From assembly GCA_008080745.1 (NCBI GenBank), contig SHMX01000013.1, forward strand, positions 1-14,974: 14,974 bases of DNA, in the 5' to 3' direction. This document shows, one piece after another, positions 8,366-14,974 of this stretch. The DNA comes from Candidatus Thorarchaeota archaeon (GTDB taxonomy: Archaea; Asgardarchaeota; Thorarchaeia; Thorarchaeales; Thorarchaeaceae). Under the pieces are notes generated by a model. That model had not been told where the DNA came from. It searched no databases and saw only the letters and a program-made list of their open reading frames with translations. Numbering within the stretch: the stretch's first letter is position 1; the number at the start of each line of letters is the position of its first letter. The translations under genes and the position numbers were made by a program.

Positions 8366-10657
8366 ATCTCTCCCTTCCATAAGGGTTAGTAAAATCGTAA
8401 ATTCATAATCCTGTAATTTTGGATAGTCACGCTTCAGAAGCATTCTTTGAGCAAGTTGTCCGGGGTGTGTTTGCAGTGCCTGCACAACTCCGTTAACTTT
8501 CGATAGATTAGCAAAATGTTGAGCTCTTACTGCTGCCGCCAGTAATTTAGCAATTTTTTCAGCATGAAGGAAGGGGATTGATTCCTCTCGTAATGAGAGA
8601 GTTCTCATGAGAGAGCCATTAGCTGGAAAGTTCACTGCACCACCCTTCTCAGTAACATCGACCATTGCTAGTCCTGAAAATATCTTCACCCGTACCCCTA
8701 ACAATAGATGAAGGATAAGACCTTGCAAGAGAATTTTTGCAATACTATCAGAATTCAGGGTTCCCGAATCGGGATAGGTACTCATGAATACATAATTTCC
8801 AATCACATCGTTTGAGATACTGAAAGTTTCCCTCTTTGCTGTGCAGATTTGTTCCAATAATGTATCGATTTTTTCTGGAAACTGATCAAATGCACCATTT
8901 AAGAGCAATTTAGATGACTTAATAGGACTTCTATCGAGTTGTCTCAATTCTTTCTTGGCTAACTCCTCCATCGCCTCAGATTCTTCTATGGAAAAAGCCA
9001 TCTGAGGAATGAGAACGTACCCCCAACCTTTGTTTCCTCTAAGTATACCTTCCAGAAGACAGAGTTCACATACATTGACATTATCCAGACGTTTGGTCCC
9101 TATTCCCATAATCATGAACTTCTTGGTGCCAGAACCCACACCAGCAGCTATTGCGGTAGTTCCTGGAGCAGCGGAACCACATATTGGACAACGAATATTG
9201 CCATCCATACTTCCCATAGCCTTAGGTTTAGCATCTCTGTAGGTGAGATAGTATCTCTGAGCTAATTCATATGCATCAAACGAACAATTTGATGTGTTTT
9301 TTTGTGATGCGAGTTCTAGAAAGGGATGCTTTACATCCGCTAACAGGGTTGTCAGATATTGTCCAATTGAAATCTCTTTTATTGGATCAAACGATGGGTC
9401 TTTGAAAATTTCCTTCATTCGTTTAACAAGCACAAGATATCCTTTCAGAAAAGCATCGACCCCCTCCTCTACATTCATCGTCTTTATGGCACGATCTGCA
9501 AAGGTATTTGATTCCAGAGTTGAACTTGCCTGATCGATAAGTTCGGTCCAAGTGGTATAGCTCATCGGGAGACCAATTTCTCCAAAAGGAATTCCTAGTA
9601 ATTCAAGCTCGGTCTTTGCTAAATCTTCCAATGCACTGTTTTTCTTATCTTCATCTATTTCTATCGCGACAATATTGGACCGTAAAGCATTCTGTAAGGT
9701 TGACAGAAAGCGAACGAATATGGCTCGTTTCTGTTCATCATTTTTTCCCGAAAATCCCTTAACTTGGTTAGCTCCGAACTCAGCCAGAGTCTTCATTGAT
9801 GATAATGCAACAATACCCTCGTTGGCAATCATACCTCGATTGATTTGTAGAGCAGTTGCACTCTCAAGAAAACTAGGTTCCATCAATTTTTCAGCAAGTA
9901 ACTTTCTGATAAGACTCTCAGCATCAATAGATATTTTTTGAATGTCTAAATCACTTTTTCCAATCATTAAACATCCATCAGGATACATAGCGAGAGGAGT
10001 ATAATCTGATTCTTTGTAAGCGAGTTGTAATCCTTTATGAAGTAAATAGGTCAAAACACCACGAGTTATCTGAACTGAGTAGTATTCAAACTTAATACCA
10101 TGGTCGTTTCTCAATGTGTCAAAATCAGGTCGTTCCAATGACCGATATGCATCTCTAGGACTTGGACTCGAAGCAATCCAATCGGCACATTTGACTATGG
10201 TTCCCAAAAGAGAAATATAGGGAAGGTCCCCTCCTTCCACTTTTTCAGTTACTACCCGTGAAAGTGAAACAGCCTCCCCCACACCCAAATGAGTGTGCAC
10301 GATAACTGCATAGACTAATGCGTGGAAGCTATCCTCAAATTCACCAATCTCATCAAGTACTGAACTCACATCATCTCCACTAGGAAGGTGTGCAGGAGGT
10401 TTACTACCGGATGAAATAGCCTCCTGAAATTCCTTAGATTCCTTCCCGAGATCATGCAAATATCCAGCTATCTGAACAACGCCAACAAATTTTTCGGGCA
10501 AGTTAATATGGTCAATTATGGTTTTTGCTACACCTGAAACAGCACGCGAATGTGAAAGAAGGGTTTGTCCTCCAAATTTCTCAGACTTCGCAAGCAGTTT
10601 ATTCCAAGATCTATCTTTTGCCCAATTCTCTAGCTGGTTGAAACTTGTATGAGTCAT
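7979..10657 (-). CDS. cas10d: Type I-D large subunit Cas10d (Csc3) with N-terminal HD nuclease
   Basis: TLLSHS...LHDLGK...HTH...ADWIAS HD motifs, CPICG...CELC Zn finger, no GGDD, 892 aa. First gene of a csc2-csc1 operon. Confidence 0.92.
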   Translation of the reverse strand: MTHTSFNQLENWAKDRSWNKLLAKSEKFGGQTLLSHSRAVSGVAKTIIDHINLPEKFVGVVQIAGYLHDLGKESKEFQEAISSGSKPPAHLPSGDDVSSVLDEIGEFEDSFHALVYAVIVHTHLGVGEAVSLSRVVTEKVEGGDLPYISLLGTIVKCADWIASSPSPRDAYRSLERPDFDTLRNDHGIKFEYYSVQITRGVLTYLLHKGLQLAYKESDYTPLAMYPDGCLMIGKSDLDIQKISIDAESLIRKLLAEKLMEPSFLESATALQINRGMIANEGIVALSSMKTLAEFGANQVKGFSGKNDEQKRAIFVRFLSTLQNALRSNIVAIEIDEDKKNSALEDLAKTELELLGIPFGEIGLPMSYTTWTELIDQASSTLESNTFADRAIKTMNVEEGVDAFLKGYLVLVKRMKEIFKDPSFDPIKEISIGQYLTTLLADVKHPFLELASQKNTSNCSFDAYELAQRYYLTYRDAKPKAMGSMDGNIRCPICGSAAPGTTAIAAGVGSGTKKFMIMGIGTKRLDNVNVCELCLLEGILRGNKGWGYVLIPQMAFSIEESEAMEELAKKELRQLDRSPIKSSKLLLNGAFDQFPEKIDTLLEQICTAKRETFSISNDVIGNYVFMSTYPDSGTLNSDSIAKILLQGLILHLLLGVRVKIFSGLAMVDVTEKGGAVNFPANGSLMRTLSLREESIPFLHAEKIAKLLAAAVRAQHFANLSKVNGVVQALQTHPGQLAQRMLLKRDYPKLQDYEFTILLTLMEGRDMTTIADEIAGIMDEYYRPEKYGSSMHAILGPVNVLYNEFRRVKNLEDSSIQAIAGKMHRQLQQLNRGDYHYAEAAAPIMELCKNIADELEGLSPREQKNFLEDLRYSVYLLRLISINERIKAKKEESK

Positions 10658-10759: not shown

Positions 10760-12205
10760 TTAGACTCCCAATTTCTTGATGTCTTCACGCTTCAAAGATT
10801 TAGAGAGATGTAAAAGGCGCTTTTTCGAAGTGTCAGCCTCTTTATTAATTCGAAATACATAGTTCGAACTTGTCTTACTGTGCTGCTGAATAGACACAAG
10901 ACCGATTCGCTCCAATTCCAGAATAAGTTGACCTGGTGAGGGGTATAATAGGTTCTTCTTTACCCGATCTTTAATTCCAAAAAACTGCTCTACTCGTTTA
11001 CACCCCTTTACGATTTGACGGGCATTACGAGCACCCCGTCGGCTTTCCACAATGAATTTCACCGAGGGGTCATCCTCATGAACATACGAATCTCTAAGAT
11101 ATGCAACAGCTAAATAGTCAAATACTGTAGAAAGAGGGGGTTTCAGAGGATATACATTGGTGGAATTTAGAGTCCGTTTAGTGAGAGTGGATAGATCCGA
11201 CCGTATAGGTTCAGAACATTCAACAAGTTTCAAGACTGAATTGAAGGGGAGGGTTTTGATCAAACTGGCAAATTGTCGAGTCACATCTTTTGTCATGGAT
11301 AGCAAATCAAACCATTGTGATACAACTTCAAACACTTTACGCTCATAAGAATGTGGGAGAATGTGAGGTGAAATTTTATCTGAATAGAGATAGTGTCGCG
11401 GATTATAATTAATAAGAAGACATTCGGATATTTGCTTTAGTTCTGTTGGGTTTTCGGTATGTTGTCGTAAAGTATTCCATAATGAAGGAATCATAATCCG
11501 ATGAGCTTGAGCATATGAGATACTATCAAGTATCCTGTCAAGGAAAAGTCGAGTCGCCGAAGGTAATGTTTCAACACGAATGACACCCGAATCAACCCTA
11601 CATCGCGCATTATATTTTTGATAGGCAAATTTTACTCCAGAAGTCGGATTTTTCACTTTTAGAATCTGACTCTCAAATATATCTGAAAAAGAAGCATCTA
11701 TGGACGAATCCATGAGTAATGCCTTTTCAATGTCTGATCTATAAGATTTCAGTCTTTTACGAAATGTATTTTCAGCTGTTTGAGATAGAGTATTACCAGT
11801 CATTTTAGATAAGGGAACTAATTTCATTCTATATTCGATTAGACAGGCTGGAAACAGTCGAACTTCATCAGTTACATCAATAAGAGAATCTTTGTAACTT
11901 GTCTGATAGGCACAACGAGCCACCATAGGAATAGGAGGACGATGTGTCATACAATAATCGGTTTCAAGTCTAAAATGGTGTAATGAGAGAGGTAGGTTTC
12001 TACCGGATACTACCCATCGTAGTTTTGCTATACCATTGATGAAAGGAAGATCAGGAGATTTCGAGGGCTCTTTTAGGCATTGTTTGAAAATAGTGCGGGT
12101 TAAATTTGACGAACATAGAAATCGTAAAGAATTTCGCAAGGTGGATGTGTCAGTTATCATTTCAGGAAATGGCAAATACGAACTTAGTACAAGCATTCGA
12201 AGCAA
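10760..12205 (-). CDS. Hypothetical basic protein, possible C-terminal winged helix; likely start TTG 12205 (ORF track start GTG 12232)
   Basis: Long ORF (481 aa from 12205). SD-like GAGGGGG precedes TTG 12205, one nt after the upstream stop. C-terminal PSPGQLILELERIGLVSIQ...NYVFRIN looks helix-plus-wing-like. No catalytic motif recognised. Confidence 0.7.
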   Translation of the reverse strand: MLRMLVLSSYLPFPEMITDTSTLRNSLRFLCSSNLTRTIFKQCLKEPSKSPDLPFINGIAKLRWVVSGRNLPLSLHHFRLETDYCMTHRPPIPMVARCAYQTSYKDSLIDVTDEVRLFPACLIEYRMKLVPLSKMTGNTLSQTAENTFRKRLKSYRSDIEKALLMDSSIDASFSDIFESQILKVKNPTSGVKFAYQKYNARCRVDSGVIRVETLPSATRLFLDRILDSISYAQAHRIMIPSLWNTLRQHTENPTELKQISECLLINYNPRHYLYSDKISPHILPHSYERKVFEVVSQWFDLLSMTKDVTRQFASLIKTLPFNSVLKLVECSEPIRSDLSTLTKRTLNSTNVYPLKPPLSTVFDYLAVAYLRDSYVHEDDPSVKFIVESRRGARNARQIVKGCKRVEQFFGIKDRVKKNLLYPSPGQLILELERIGLVSIQQHSKTSSNYVFRINKEADTSKKRLLHLSKSLKREDIKKLGV

Positions 12206-12206
12206 T

Positions 12207-13679
12207 TTAATCCCCCTCAAAGTCGTGTTCACTTATTAGCCATTCATTTGTACCAGGCTTCCATCGTTCCATAGGAAAACTCCAATTGGTAAAATGCTGA
12301 TGACTATATTGAAGTAGCCATCTTTCGTATCCCTCAAGAAGCCCATTAAGTGTGTTTGATACCTCTGCCAGATAACCTTCTGGCATGCGTAGAGTGAATA
12401 TCGTGTATCCATTATGGGTACGTTGAGCATATATTTCAGGTAGGCAAGATAGAGCTCTTGAGAGTTTTTCATGTTTTGATGAATTTATGTGTGCAACCAT
12501 AATAATACTCTCTGGAGCAAAAAGGGGATTAGGAAGTATTCTATTCCAAATGATACCCCGATTCTGAAGCTCATTAAGCCTTCTTCTAATGAAATTATAA
12601 TCTTTACCTACTTCTTCGCGAACGGTCCGAACAGTCAATGGCCCTCTCTCAAAAAGAAGACGGATCATCTTTACATCCAAGTTAGTAATCTCAAATCCTG
12701 AAAGAAAAAGATCGGGAACTTGGGACTCTAGTGGGATATGTTCTTCTTCAAAACCATGACGGATAGAAGTACCATAATATGCAGGAGGAATATTCCATGA
12801 TGTGCCAGAAAATCTATCGTAGTTGTAATTCATCCAGGAACGATTGGGATTCCGCTCAAAGACTCTTACATCTGTAACGTGTTTTTTACTCAGTATCAAG
12901 TCTCGCCAATCGTCTATTTCTGATCCGGATCTCCAAGATATAGGGACTATCAGATTTACAAGTATGAAACGATTTCCAAACTTGCAATCATATATGCTAT
13001 GAACCCAAGGATTTGGATGACCTACTTGGATAGGCAAGGGGGCATCTAGATTATCCATCTCAATTAAAACAATGGATACTTTTAGATTTAATGCCCGATA
13101 GGAAAATCGAATCGCTTCATATAGAATCTTTCTTGAGCATAGCTCCTGGAGCTTTCTCGAAACATAACCTTTTGTAGTTCCAATCAGCTCAGCCAATTTA
13201 CTGGGAGAAATGGTCTGTGTATAGATGGCTTTCTGAAAGATGTCCACCTCTCGGGATGTGAGAACAGGCCGATATTGACTGCGAATTTTAAGAACCGTAG
13301 CGATAAAGTCATCACGAATAGAATCACTGGATATCTCCCTGAGCCTAAGAAAAGCTGATTTTAGTAAATGGAAACTCTCAGGGTGACTGAGGAGCATATC
13401 GTAGATTCGAGGAGGATCATAGATAAGATTTGACCCAGCGTAACTATGCTCGGTCTTAGACTGCCAGAACCAATCGAGTTCTACCAATTGATGATGAGGG
13501 ACTCCTAGTTTTAGCAGTAATTGTTTAGTCCTAAAACAAATAATATCCCAAACTATTGCATTATTTGCTAGATCCAGTTCCAATATCAGGTCCTTTATCG
13601 AGGTACTAATCTTTTCTCTATCATTCTTCTTACATTTTGCAGTACTGCATATCTGTTCAATGATAGTCTGAAGTTTCAT
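12207..13679 (-). CDS. Tandem wHTH / Lrp-AsnC-like transcriptional regulator with an extra N-terminal domain
   Basis: Two HTH units (LTSREVDIF...ISPSKLAELIGTTKGYVSRKLQEL and LDVKMIRLL...LTVRTVREEVGKDYNFIRRRLNELQNRGII), each followed by a ferredoxin/RAM-like alternation of hydrophobic strands. Confidence 0.7.
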   Translation of the reverse strand: MKLQTIIEQICSTAKCKKNDREKISTSIKDLILELDLANNAIVWDIICFRTKQLLLKLGVPHHQLVELDWFWQSKTEHSYAGSNLIYDPPRIYDMLLSHPESFHLLKSAFLRLREISSDSIRDDFIATVLKIRSQYRPVLTSREVDIFQKAIYTQTISPSKLAELIGTTKGYVSRKLQELCSRKILYEAIRFSYRALNLKVSIVLIEMDNLDAPLPIQVGHPNPWVHSIYDCKFGNRFILVNLIVPISWRSGSEIDDWRDLILSKKHVTDVRVFERNPNRSWMNYNYDRFSGTSWNIPPAYYGTSIRHGFEEEHIPLESQVPDLFLSGFEITNLDVKMIRLLFERGPLTVRTVREEVGKDYNFIRRRLNELQNRGIIWNRILPNPLFAPESIIMVAHINSSKHEKLSRALSCLPEIYAQRTHNGYTIFTLRMPEGYLAEVSNTLNGLLEGYERWLLQYSHQHFTNWSFPMERWKPGTNEWLISEHDFEGD

Positions 13680-13704
13680 CCCGTCTTTAAAGTATCATTT
13701 CCCC

Positions 13705-13711
13705 TATAAAA
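13705..13711 (-). promoter_or_regulatory. TATA-like box for the wHTH gene (likely leaderless)
   Basis: TTTTATA ends about 26 nt before ATG 13679. Confidence 0.45.
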
Positions 13712-13747
13712 TAATAATCCCCCAACCAGATTACGAGTTTTAGAAGT

Positions 13748-13813
13748 TTATATGGCCTTTATTTTGCTGTTAGAAGATAAATAACGCCTTTCTTTCCTGT
13801 CCAATTTGGTCAT
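13748..13813 (-). CDS. Putative 21-aa basic mini-ORF MTKLDRKERRYLSSNSKIKAI
   Basis: SD GGAGGTGG (13829-13822), 8 nt, then ATG; ends at TAA 13750-13748. Not in the ORF track because of its length. Confidence 0.4.
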   Translation of the reverse strand: MTKLDRKERRYLSSNSKIKAI

Positions 13814-13852
13814 CCAATTGTCCACCTCCTAGGGTCTCAGAGGTGATAAAGA

Positions 13853-13900
13853 ATGCAACGCCCTCCTGATGACCCATTTCCAATACCCCCGTGGGATTGA
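13853..13900 (+). CDS. Putative 15-aa proline-rich mini-ORF MQRPPDDPFPIPPWD
   Basis: Near-perfect archaeal SD GAGGTGAT (13840-13847), 5 nt, then ATG; ends at TGA 13898-13900; 6 of 15 residues are Pro. Confidence 0.5.
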   Translation: MQRPPDDPFPIPPWD

Positions 13901-13927
13901 ATCAGTACTAAAAACAAAAGTGGCCAG

Positions 13928-14013
13928 AGACCTCGAATCAATCGAGGTCTTACCCTTAGACAGCATACAAGGGCATCCACGAACATATAATCGTGGCCCC
14001 TTTTTCTTTTTTT
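13928..14013 (+). terminator. Cluster of three hairpins followed by a T-tract (3' end of a putative small RNA)
   Basis: AGACCTCGA/TCGAGGTCT (13928-13950, 9 bp), CCCTT/AAGGG (13953-13973), CCACGA/TCGTGG (13977-13996), then TTTTTCTTTTTTT (14001-14013). Confidence 0.5.
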
Positions 14014-14185
14014 GGTTCTGTTAACGATATGATAAAACAGAAGAATCACATGTTTTGGTCTTTGGGTAATATTGCGGATGGATGAATAGTAACTTTTCGA
14101 GATACATCGCTTCTTCATTTCATTAGGATATACCTCTAAGATTTTTGTTTGATAATAACGGTAGTGCACCCTAAAACACTTCAAA

Positions 14186-14225
14186 CATTATTCTTTTCTA
14201 GTAAACCTAATCTAGAAAAATAATG
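14186..14225 (-). terminator. Hairpin downstream of the terminal repeat; candidate pre-crRNA terminator
   Basis: CATTATT(CT)TTTCTAG, 10-nt loop, CTAGAAAAATAATG: a 14-bp stem with a 2-nt bulge, 16 nt beyond the last repeat in the inferred transcription direction. Confidence 0.4.
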
Positions 14226-14241
14226 GGAAACAACAGAAATT

Positions 14242-14974
14242 GTTTCAATCTCCTTACTTGGAGCTTATTTTCTGCAGCGTTGAAACCGTTATCGAGGCTC
14301 AGAAGAGAGCCGTCTTTCAATCTCCTTACTTGGAGCTTATTTTCTGCAGCCTTATTATGTTGAAACAAACGGTTTAACAAGTGTCTCCTTTCAATCTCCT
14401 TACTTGGAGCTTATTTTCTGCAGCATTATAGTTATGTTCATCTTTTGTTTAAAAGATGGTATAACTTTCAATCTCCTTACTTGGAGCTTATTTTCTGCAG
14501 CCAAGTTCTTGATATTATTCTTGCCTACTACAATAGTCTTTCAATCTCCTTACTTGGAGCTTATTTTCTGCAGCATAGGGATTTGTCCAAACATACCCCG
14601 GTTCGCCTGAGATCTTTCAATCTCCTTACTTGGAGCTTATTTTCTGCAGCGAGCCAGTTGGATATCGTGGTTTGTCGCGTCTGGGTTTGCTTTCAATCTC
14701 CTTACTTGGAGCTTATTTTCTGCAGCTATCAGATTCTGACCTTTTCTTTTTGAATTCAATATCCTTTCAATCTCCTTACTTGGAGCTTATTTTCTGCAGC
14801 AAAGGTGTATCGAGGTTCGACATCGATCAGGCATGATGCTTTCAATCTCCTTACTTGGAGCTTATTTTCTGCAGCTCATGGGCGGGGCTAGGTTTGATGC
14901 GTCGGGACCGTTCAGCTTTCAATCTCCTTACTTGGAGCTTATTTTCTGCAGCGAGCCAGTTGGATATCGTGGTT
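14242..14974 (-). CRISPR. CRISPR array, trailer end: 10 repeats of 37 bp, 9 complete spacers (35-40 nt) and 1 partial; continues beyond the window
   Basis: Repeats start at 14242, 14314, 14388, 14465, 14538, 14614, 14690, 14764, 14839 and 14916. Minus-strand consensus GCTGCAGAAAATAAGCTCCAAGTAAGGAGATTGAAAG: the CUCC/GGAG stem ends exactly 8 nt before the end (AUUGAAAG handle). The only mismatched repeat is the leftmost (14242 C>G), consistent with a trailer. Confidence 0.98.

Follow-up and report, generated by a model that had tools for sequence, protein, structure and literature searches.

CreT, of the type I-F CreTA module of P. aeruginosa, is a small RNA located in a CRISPR-Cas locus that requires a Shine-Dalgarno (SD) sequence, a hairpin and a mini-ORF whose stop is preceded by two Pro codons (bioRxiv 10.64898/2026.06.02.729485). 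Its frame comprises 4 sense codons with no other conserved residues, any Pro codon suffices, and the RNA is silenced by Cascade plus CreA. MgtL, from the mgtA leader of E. coli and Salmonella, is a 17-codon ORF with an acidic, Pro-rich cluster after the start and a structured RNA behind it; its translation is abortive or slow depending on condition (Pro and EF-P sensing), and it acts in cis on mgtA via alternative leader structures. Clusters of D, E and P directly after the start, as in MgtL (MEPDPT...), destabilize the ribosome and serve as sensors, the criterion being an N-terminal D/E/P-rich cluster in which at least four of six residues are of this kind (bioRxiv 10.1101/2021.02.02.429294). 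Among stalling tripeptides, PPW stands out most as a pause site when bacteria have no EF-P (PMC8705083), and both DDP and PDP are eIF5A-dependent (PMC7104864). The AZIN1 uCC of eukaryotes, a short conserved coding region, likewise has a conserved PPW close to its end; according to the account of Ivanov et al. 2018 contained in PMC8705083, pausing there depends on eIF5A and polyamines, and this upstream frame controls the main ORF of the same mRNA by ribosome queuing.

In the RRNPP systems of Bacillota (Rgg/SHP, ComR/ComS), a tiny peptide gene lies by its cognate regulator, often divergently, and paralogous cassettes carry different peptides; the receptors are TPR proteins, and the peptides are exported, processed and re-imported. 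Lrp/AsnC (FFRP) proteins often control a divergent neighbour and are switched by small ligands at their RAM domain.

The window analysed here is a complete contig of 14,974 bp from a Thorarchaeota genome and carries a type I-D CRISPR-Cas locus. Within it, a frame of 15 codons is, with high confidence, a real and unannotated gene for a tiny acidic, Pro-rich peptide, and it probably works together with the proteins encoded beside it. The features of a creT-type RNA are found, namely a strong SD, a mini-ORF with stall-prone codons and a stabilizing hairpin; as in RRNPP systems, the peptide gene adjoins a regulator gene.

Sequence and conservation of the micropeptide frame

The small ORF (sORF) lies in a 562-bp gap between the start codon of the first 490-aa gene (13679) and the CRISPR array. 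It occupies 13853-13900 of the plus strand (MQRPPDDPFPIPPWD, 15 codons plus TGA), beginning with ATG at 13853, ending with TGA at 13898-13900 and reading M-Q-R-P-P-D-D-P-F-P-I-P-P-W-D. The preliminary description of this DNA had reported six Pro among the 15 residues, which the reading frame confirms, with RPPD at residues 3-6 and IPPW at residues 11-14; the PPW ends one codon short of the stop. The SD site GAGGTGAT (13840-13847, plus strand) is separated from the ATG by 5 nt and is complementary to 8 nt at the 3' end of the 16S rRNA of this genome, ...GGATCACCTCCT; GGAGGTGA is retained in almost all homologous loci. The 15-mer is acidic and without a hydrophobic stretch, all of its relatives are acidic too, and neither a signal sequence nor a hydrophobic SHP-type export signal is present in its sequence, making a classic quorum-type loop unlikely.

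Ahead of the SD, 13745-13839 (plus strand) is the putative promoter/operator region and 5' leader of the RNA. CCAATT-type elements lie within it at 13801-13819, and four other genomes (G008, G011, G012 and G043) have a related element, CCAATTnnnnnAGGGAGTTYC, in the equivalent position. A minus-strand mini-ORF at 13748-13825, which is a basic frame of 21-25 codons behind GGAGGTG (plus-strand CACCTCC, 13823-13829), was also considered and is probably incidental, as GGAGGTG is not kept in G008 or G011.

Applied to both strands of the whole 3.16-Mb genome, a chance filter requiring an SD-like sequence, 8-60 codons, at least 27% Pro and one PP returned 9 matches, and the frame at 13853-13900 is the sole Pro-rich short ORF behind GAGGTGA on that same scale. 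In a DNA search of relatives, two further genera proved to have this stretch, each with the same SD and with a matching frame (MYRPPDDPSPIPPF and MHNPPGDPSPVPPWC), and orthologues of the sORF are found in six other Thorarchaeota genomes. Common to the seven Thorarchaeota loci is a core of 11 codons, P-[P/G]-[D/G]-D-P-x-P-[I/V]-P-P-[W/F], in which third positions vary in all 11 columns, first positions in 3 and second positions in 4; pooled over these loci, pS is 0.73 and pN is 0.17 (pN/pS 0.23). This substitution pattern shows that selection acts on the peptide or, at the least, on which codons are used, and a peptide conserved under saturated synonymous change marks the sORF as a real coding element. 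The peptide-level conservation for which the preliminary description had called is therefore present. The Pro codons differ from genome to genome and vary freely, so selection is not on one tRNA species.

The second family of the phylum has related peptide types (...DPDEPEFWPP and ...PPDDPEPWPP), and P or PP falls within the last few codons of nearly every family member. Scanning the genome contigs of the whole collection for the peptide core gave 41 matches, five of which have an SD, a start and a short frame; all five are Thorarchaeota records already found, and the remaining matches, which are bacterial frames lacking these features, were discarded. A metagenome scan with SD plus core yielded two chance matches and nothing else, and weak blastn matches in G015 and G091 fall inside an ordinary coding gene and were likewise attributed to chance. 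Full-text searches of the literature turned up no description of such a gene in Thorarchaeota.

Some other short frames and features were recorded along the way. A 17-codon frame, FDFL[PQ]PGDP[IV]PVPPWH[YC], is shared by four Limosilactobacillus genomes (L071, L072, L098 and L101); it has neither SD nor start codon and is probably the reverse or an alternate frame of a conserved element. Outside the window, on contig C2 of G000, a second candidate micropeptide (MNPMKPPPDGPW, 205703-205741, plus strand) has AAGGAG ahead of it and a hairpin and T-run after it, and its ORF is convergent with a 704-aa ORF on the minus strand (205797-207911). The same contig holds an archaeal SSU rRNA match at 589938-592348, which at 2411 nt against a 1478-position model suggests one or more large 16S insertions or introns.

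Linkage to a divergent regulator and the CRISPR-Cas context

The search of the phylum covered 400 genomes and used the neighbouring 490-aa protein alone as its query, returning homologues of this regulator (12207-13679) in 69 of them. The 30 best loci were taken by regulator protein only, blind to the sORF. A Pro-rich sORF behind a GGAGGTGA-type SD is present in 20 of these, and one further locus has a variant without PP, giving 21 of 30; two of the 30 are cut by contig ends. In every one of the 21 the sORF is on the opposite strand and close upstream of the regulator start (173 bp separate the two in the window), and the sORF filter gave no other match within the 30 loci. In ten more distant regulator homologues an sORF was not detectable. 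Two cassettes with different peptides are held by one genome, G115. The preliminary description had favoured a stand-alone role for the peptide. This is not supported, since a divergent tandem-Lrp-like regulator, a second 490-aa protein and, as third member, the sORF make up a conserved cassette. A close regulator homologue on contig C4 of G011 (L050, 2391-3932, E 6e-108) looks like a solo copy, with neither a Pro-rich sORF found in the upstream search nor a second partner protein detected.

Partner gene 1 (12207-13679, minus strand) encodes the 490-aa regulator. Its AF2 model has a pLDDT of 85 and comprises a 135-residue N-terminal helical domain followed by two units of a winged HTH plus a RAM-like domain, the latter with the topology beta-alpha-beta-beta-alpha-beta. 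Foldseek places NirDL at the top (double Lrp fold, E 8e-8), followed by many Lrp/AsnC/FFRP regulators, with probability 1.0 to many FFRPs; the protein is thus predicted by its model to fold as a tandem Lrp/AsnC-like regulator. In Pfam searches with E values up to 0.01 it matched HTH families only and no AsnC-type ligand domain, and NCBIfam and PADLOC gave weak wHTH matches alone, so the likeness to Lrp/AsnC is structural only.

Partner gene 2 (10760-12232, minus strand) overlaps the end of gene 1 and encodes an uncharacterized protein, also of 490 aa, for which no family match was found in Pfam, NCBIfam or PADLOC. It is conserved beside partner 1 in seven loci and always accompanies it in the Thorarchaeota loci. 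The two were entertained as paralogous regulators and this was abandoned, the BLASTP comparison of partner 2 with partner 1 not being significant. The AF2 model of partner 2 is poor (pLDDT 61) and uninformative on the first 300 residues; within this poor model, residues 350-485 match winged-helix proteins with Z of 7-8.4, suggesting a C-terminal winged helix.

About 100 nt downstream of partner gene 2 begin the co-oriented type I-D interference genes (3392-10657, minus strand), a set in which Cas10d with its HD domain, Csc2/Cas7d, Csc1/Cas5d, Cas3' and Cas6 are all found; the plus strand of the window has a DUF2797 gene, cas1, cas2 and cas4. The CRISPR array, assigned to the minus strand, has ten 37-nt repeats and extends from 14242 to the contig end at 14974. 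As the reverse complement of the repeat ends in ATTGAAAG, the crRNA would be read from the minus strand, and the degenerate repeat copy at 14242 (1 mismatch) marks the leader-distal end. The window array was compared with L014, L015 and L046: in G008, G011 and G012 the array next to the sORF is co-directional and downstream of it; here it is inverted, its crRNA being convergent with the sORF. The same 37-nt repeat occurs in identical orientation at both ends of the window (1-84 and 14242-14974; the copy at 1-37 has 2 mismatches), so that either two arrays flank the cas locus or the assembly broke inside one array. The spacer from 14651 (14651-14672) equals the truncated last spacer (14953-14974) over 22 nt, being either a duplicated spacer or an assembly artefact.

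Close cas10d homologues are found in five of 86 family genomes. The order of sORF, divergent regulator, second protein, gap of about 100 nt and cas10d is the same in all four that can be assessed (this genome, G008, G011 and G012); in the fifth, the contig stops at cas10d. In the second family, the regulator is again seen in CRISPR-cas neighbourhoods (G028, G112 and G113). A homologue of it lies between cas6 and a DUF2797-cas1-cas2-cas4 block in L114 of G113 (about 4860-6260). In L055/L110 of G112, a homologue and a 93-repeat array are 1.6 kb apart, and there is a second copy near cas1-cas2 at a distance of 16 kb. In G005 and G135, the 20 kb around the cassette holds no cas gene, the G005 copy having the defence-island-like neighbours HepT/MNT and AAA_14-DUF4143, and genomes of genus g5 have the cassette with no match to I-D cas10d. 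As it is also found without cas genes, the cassette is autonomous, yet it has been repeatedly recruited to CRISPR-Cas loci.

The structured RNA and the possible roles of its peptide

Judged by its sequence and predicted fold, the sORF is carried on a small, structured and self-terminating RNA of roughly 170-200 nt, at about 13810-14013. The fold z-score of 13810-14012 is -4.1 relative to shuffles. Behind the frame, the 3' domain consists of stem-loop 1 (13927-13951, 10 bp, loop AUCAA) and stem-loop 2 (13953-13973, 5 bp, loop AGACARCAUAC, tail GCAUCC), followed by the putative 3' end of the RNA at 13977-14013, where a terminator-like hairpin (13977-13996) precedes a T-rich run (14001-14013), all on the plus strand. 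In the RNAalifold consensus of the four genera with the type I-D-linked cassette, five of the ten pairs of stem-loop 1 show compensatory double changes and stem-loop 2 has one compensatory pair, making six of 15 pairs for the two stems together, and the loops are almost invariant. The covariance model R1 of the 3' domain found only its four I-D-linked training loci among the 86 family genomes; weaker matches had no sORF upstream and were set aside. All homologous loci have a T-run behind the structured region, more distant cassettes having different hairpins plus the T-run, and Rfam over 13400-14974 gave only a sub-threshold CRISPR-repeat match. A small hairpin at 13881-13899, which the preliminary description had placed over the last codons, does appear in the minimum-free-energy fold; it is out of register in relatives, however, and is largely a consequence of CCN...TGG self-complementarity.

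The stalling motifs named in the preliminary description were borne out and extended: PPD, DDP and PPW all occur in the sORF, with published backing for such motifs (PMC8705083, PMC7104864), and the hexapeptide RPPDDP has D, E or P at five of six positions. All three motif classes, PPW, DDP and a D/E/P cluster after the start, are therefore combined in a single short frame. The genome encodes aIF5A, a family that among the controls searched matched only archaeal control genomes. The same description had noted that no plus-strand gene lies downstream, and indeed there is none after the T-run and the array is antisense. The content downstream of the sORF differs among loci, and the distance to downstream elements ranges from 330 to 1260 nt. 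With no gene downstream on the same strand in the window and nothing conserved there, cis-attenuation is not supported.

A tentative mechanism for the whole peptide-regulator cassette, including control of the I-D operon, can be proposed, and its chance of being right in full is somewhat below even. The regulator pair would bind the shared intergenic region and control both divergent promoters, and the sORF RNA would be heavily loaded with ribosomes through its 8-nt SD. Almost all of the ORF consists of motifs predicted to be translated slowly or abortively when a/eIF5A is missing (PPD, DDP, a PPW close to the stop, and D/E/P at five of the six early residues); being built of IF5A-dependent motifs, it could make peptide output a report of translation capacity. 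The acidic, Pro-rich 15-mer may then feed back on its cognate regulator through the RAM-like domains, just as amino acids act on Lrp/AsnC proteins; this feedback would tune the regulator operon and the cas genes behind it, in this lineage setting expression of the I-D operon. Such an intracellular feedback loop needs an input, which is presumed here. Counting against the mechanism are the missing export signal, the purely structural likeness of the regulator to Lrp/AsnC proteins, and regulator homologues with no sORF detected upstream, one of them close (G011, contig C4) and ten more distant.

Peptide composition alone fits a translation-stall or a toxin role equally well. The RNA could accordingly be a protein-controlled Pro-codon toxin or addiction element which, like CreT of P. 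aeruginosa, arrests translation when over-expressed; the divergent DNA-binding proteins, not Cascade-CreA, would repress it, and loss of the regulator-cas operon would release the toxin. This is unlikely, although several features suit it: the architecture is that of a Pro-codon CreT (bioRxiv 10.64898/2026.06.02.729485), with PP or P close to the stop in almost every family member, its occurrence is patchy and multi-copy, CRISPR-cas loci of at least three independent lineages contain the cassette, and the neighbours in G005 resemble those of a defence island. CreT needs two Pro codons only, however, whereas here D, I/V and W/F are conserved over 11 codons; an antitoxin made of two proteins of about 490 aa each would be unusually large, and the cassette is also found among ordinary metabolic genes. 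Quite unlikely is an arrest or abortive-translation sensor of the MgtL type whose output is RNA, the peptide being a by-product. Stalling or drop-off, set by aIF5A, Pro-tRNA, Mg2+ or polyamines, would alter the folding, stability or read-through of the 3' domain, which would then act in trans or on downstream transcription. The D/E/P content of RPPDDP is of the MgtL type (bioRxiv 10.1101/2021.02.02.429294), PPW and DDP are IF5A-dependent (PMC8705083, PMC7104864), the stems of the 3' domain covary around their almost invariant loops, and three relatives have the co-directional array downstream. In the window, by contrast, there is no co-directional gene or array downstream, and the spacing to downstream elements is variable, as given above. 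The 3' domain is also confined to four genera, where the peptide type is not; no second or complementary target site for the conserved loop AGACARCAUAC was found in the window; and G008 and G011 lack the alternative pairings of the window, which involve the terminator hairpin and GGCCA/TGGCC, so that conservation of structure is limited to the two 3' stems. The minimum-free-energy folds leave the SD mostly paired, but its mean pairing probability of 0.78 is no greater than the 0.79 of shuffled-flank controls, so SD sequestration is not a specific feature.

The strong structure and the covarying 3' domain would also be accounted for by a small RNA that codes for nothing and contains an open frame by accident, but this reading is very improbable given the codon-periodic substitutions and low pN/pS, and given that start, stop and SD are kept in 21 loci of two families whose nucleotide sequence is otherwise unalignable. 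Scarcely credible is a canonical CreTA, in which the type I-D Cascade would repress a CreT RNA with a CRISPR-like CreA guide. The sORF does lie between the array and the cas10d operon with a CreT-like architecture, yet in 13680-14241 no creA or repeat-like sequence (up to 3 mismatches in 14 nt) was found beyond chance-level sites. For none of the spacers, the odd one at 38-74 included, is the best seed match to the intergenic region and sORF promoter better than for shuffled spacers, in the window and in G008, and the same cassette occurs in genomes without I-D cas10d or any nearby cas gene, showing no dependence on a resident Cas effector. Membership of CreTA is consequently rejected, while a CreT-like mode of action is not.

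Returning to the peptide-regulator cassette, its boldest form would make the sORF the first archaeal translation-arrest micro-ORF, one sensitive to aIF5A, polyamines or Mg2+, with a peptide output or a ribosome-trapping toxicity that is read or restrained by the tandem-Lrp pair and that Thorarchaeota have wired to a type I-D operon. This is possible, if doubtful as a whole. If true, CreTA would have a functional analogue under protein control, and the PPW/eIF5A pause switch of eukaryotes would have its Asgard counterpart, with a peptide assembled from motifs that are a/eIF5A-dependent in bacteria and eukaryotes. Its recurrence as the leading element of CRISPR-Cas operons suggests that cas genes are controlled or protected through an undescribed layer without a CreA guide. 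Genes of such length are invisible to gene callers, and as Asgard archaea are not yet genetically tractable, a conserved micropeptide with a fixed partner is a rare and directly testable regulatory handle; all that the test requires is a synthetic 15-mer, 173 bp of DNA and one purified protein.

Comparison with known systems

As in CreT, a small RNA within a CRISPR-Cas locus has a strong SD, consecutive Pro near the stop and a stabilizing hairpin, and the Pro codons likewise vary between genomes. Unlike CreT, the frame has 15 codons with conserved D, I/V and W/F, and it has no CreA and no spacer match; unlike CreTA, the cassette has two DNA-binding partners, also occurs without cas genes and resides in an archaeal host. 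The likeness to MgtL lies in a short ORF with an acidic, Pro-rich cluster after the start and a structured RNA behind it; the sORF RNA differs in having its own terminator and no conserved downstream gene, its fixed partner being a divergent regulator operon. Like the AZIN1 uCC, as far as that system is described in the source cited above, the sORF is short and conserved and has a conserved PPW towards its end, in a host with aIF5A, but no main ORF follows it.

The arrangement of a tiny peptide gene by its cognate regulator, divergently oriented, and the presence of different peptides in paralogous cassettes recall RRNPP systems. The HTH plus TPR receptor typical of these is not seen in partner 1, the model of which instead has wHTH and RAM-like domains and is matched by Foldseek to Lrp/AsnC and NirDL. 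From Lrp/AsnC proteins, partner 1 differs in having no Pfam AsnC match, an extra N-terminal domain and two units in one chain; what it is predicted to share with the Lrp/AsnC (FFRP) and NirDL/AhbAB proteins is the repeated combination of a winged HTH with a RAM-like domain.
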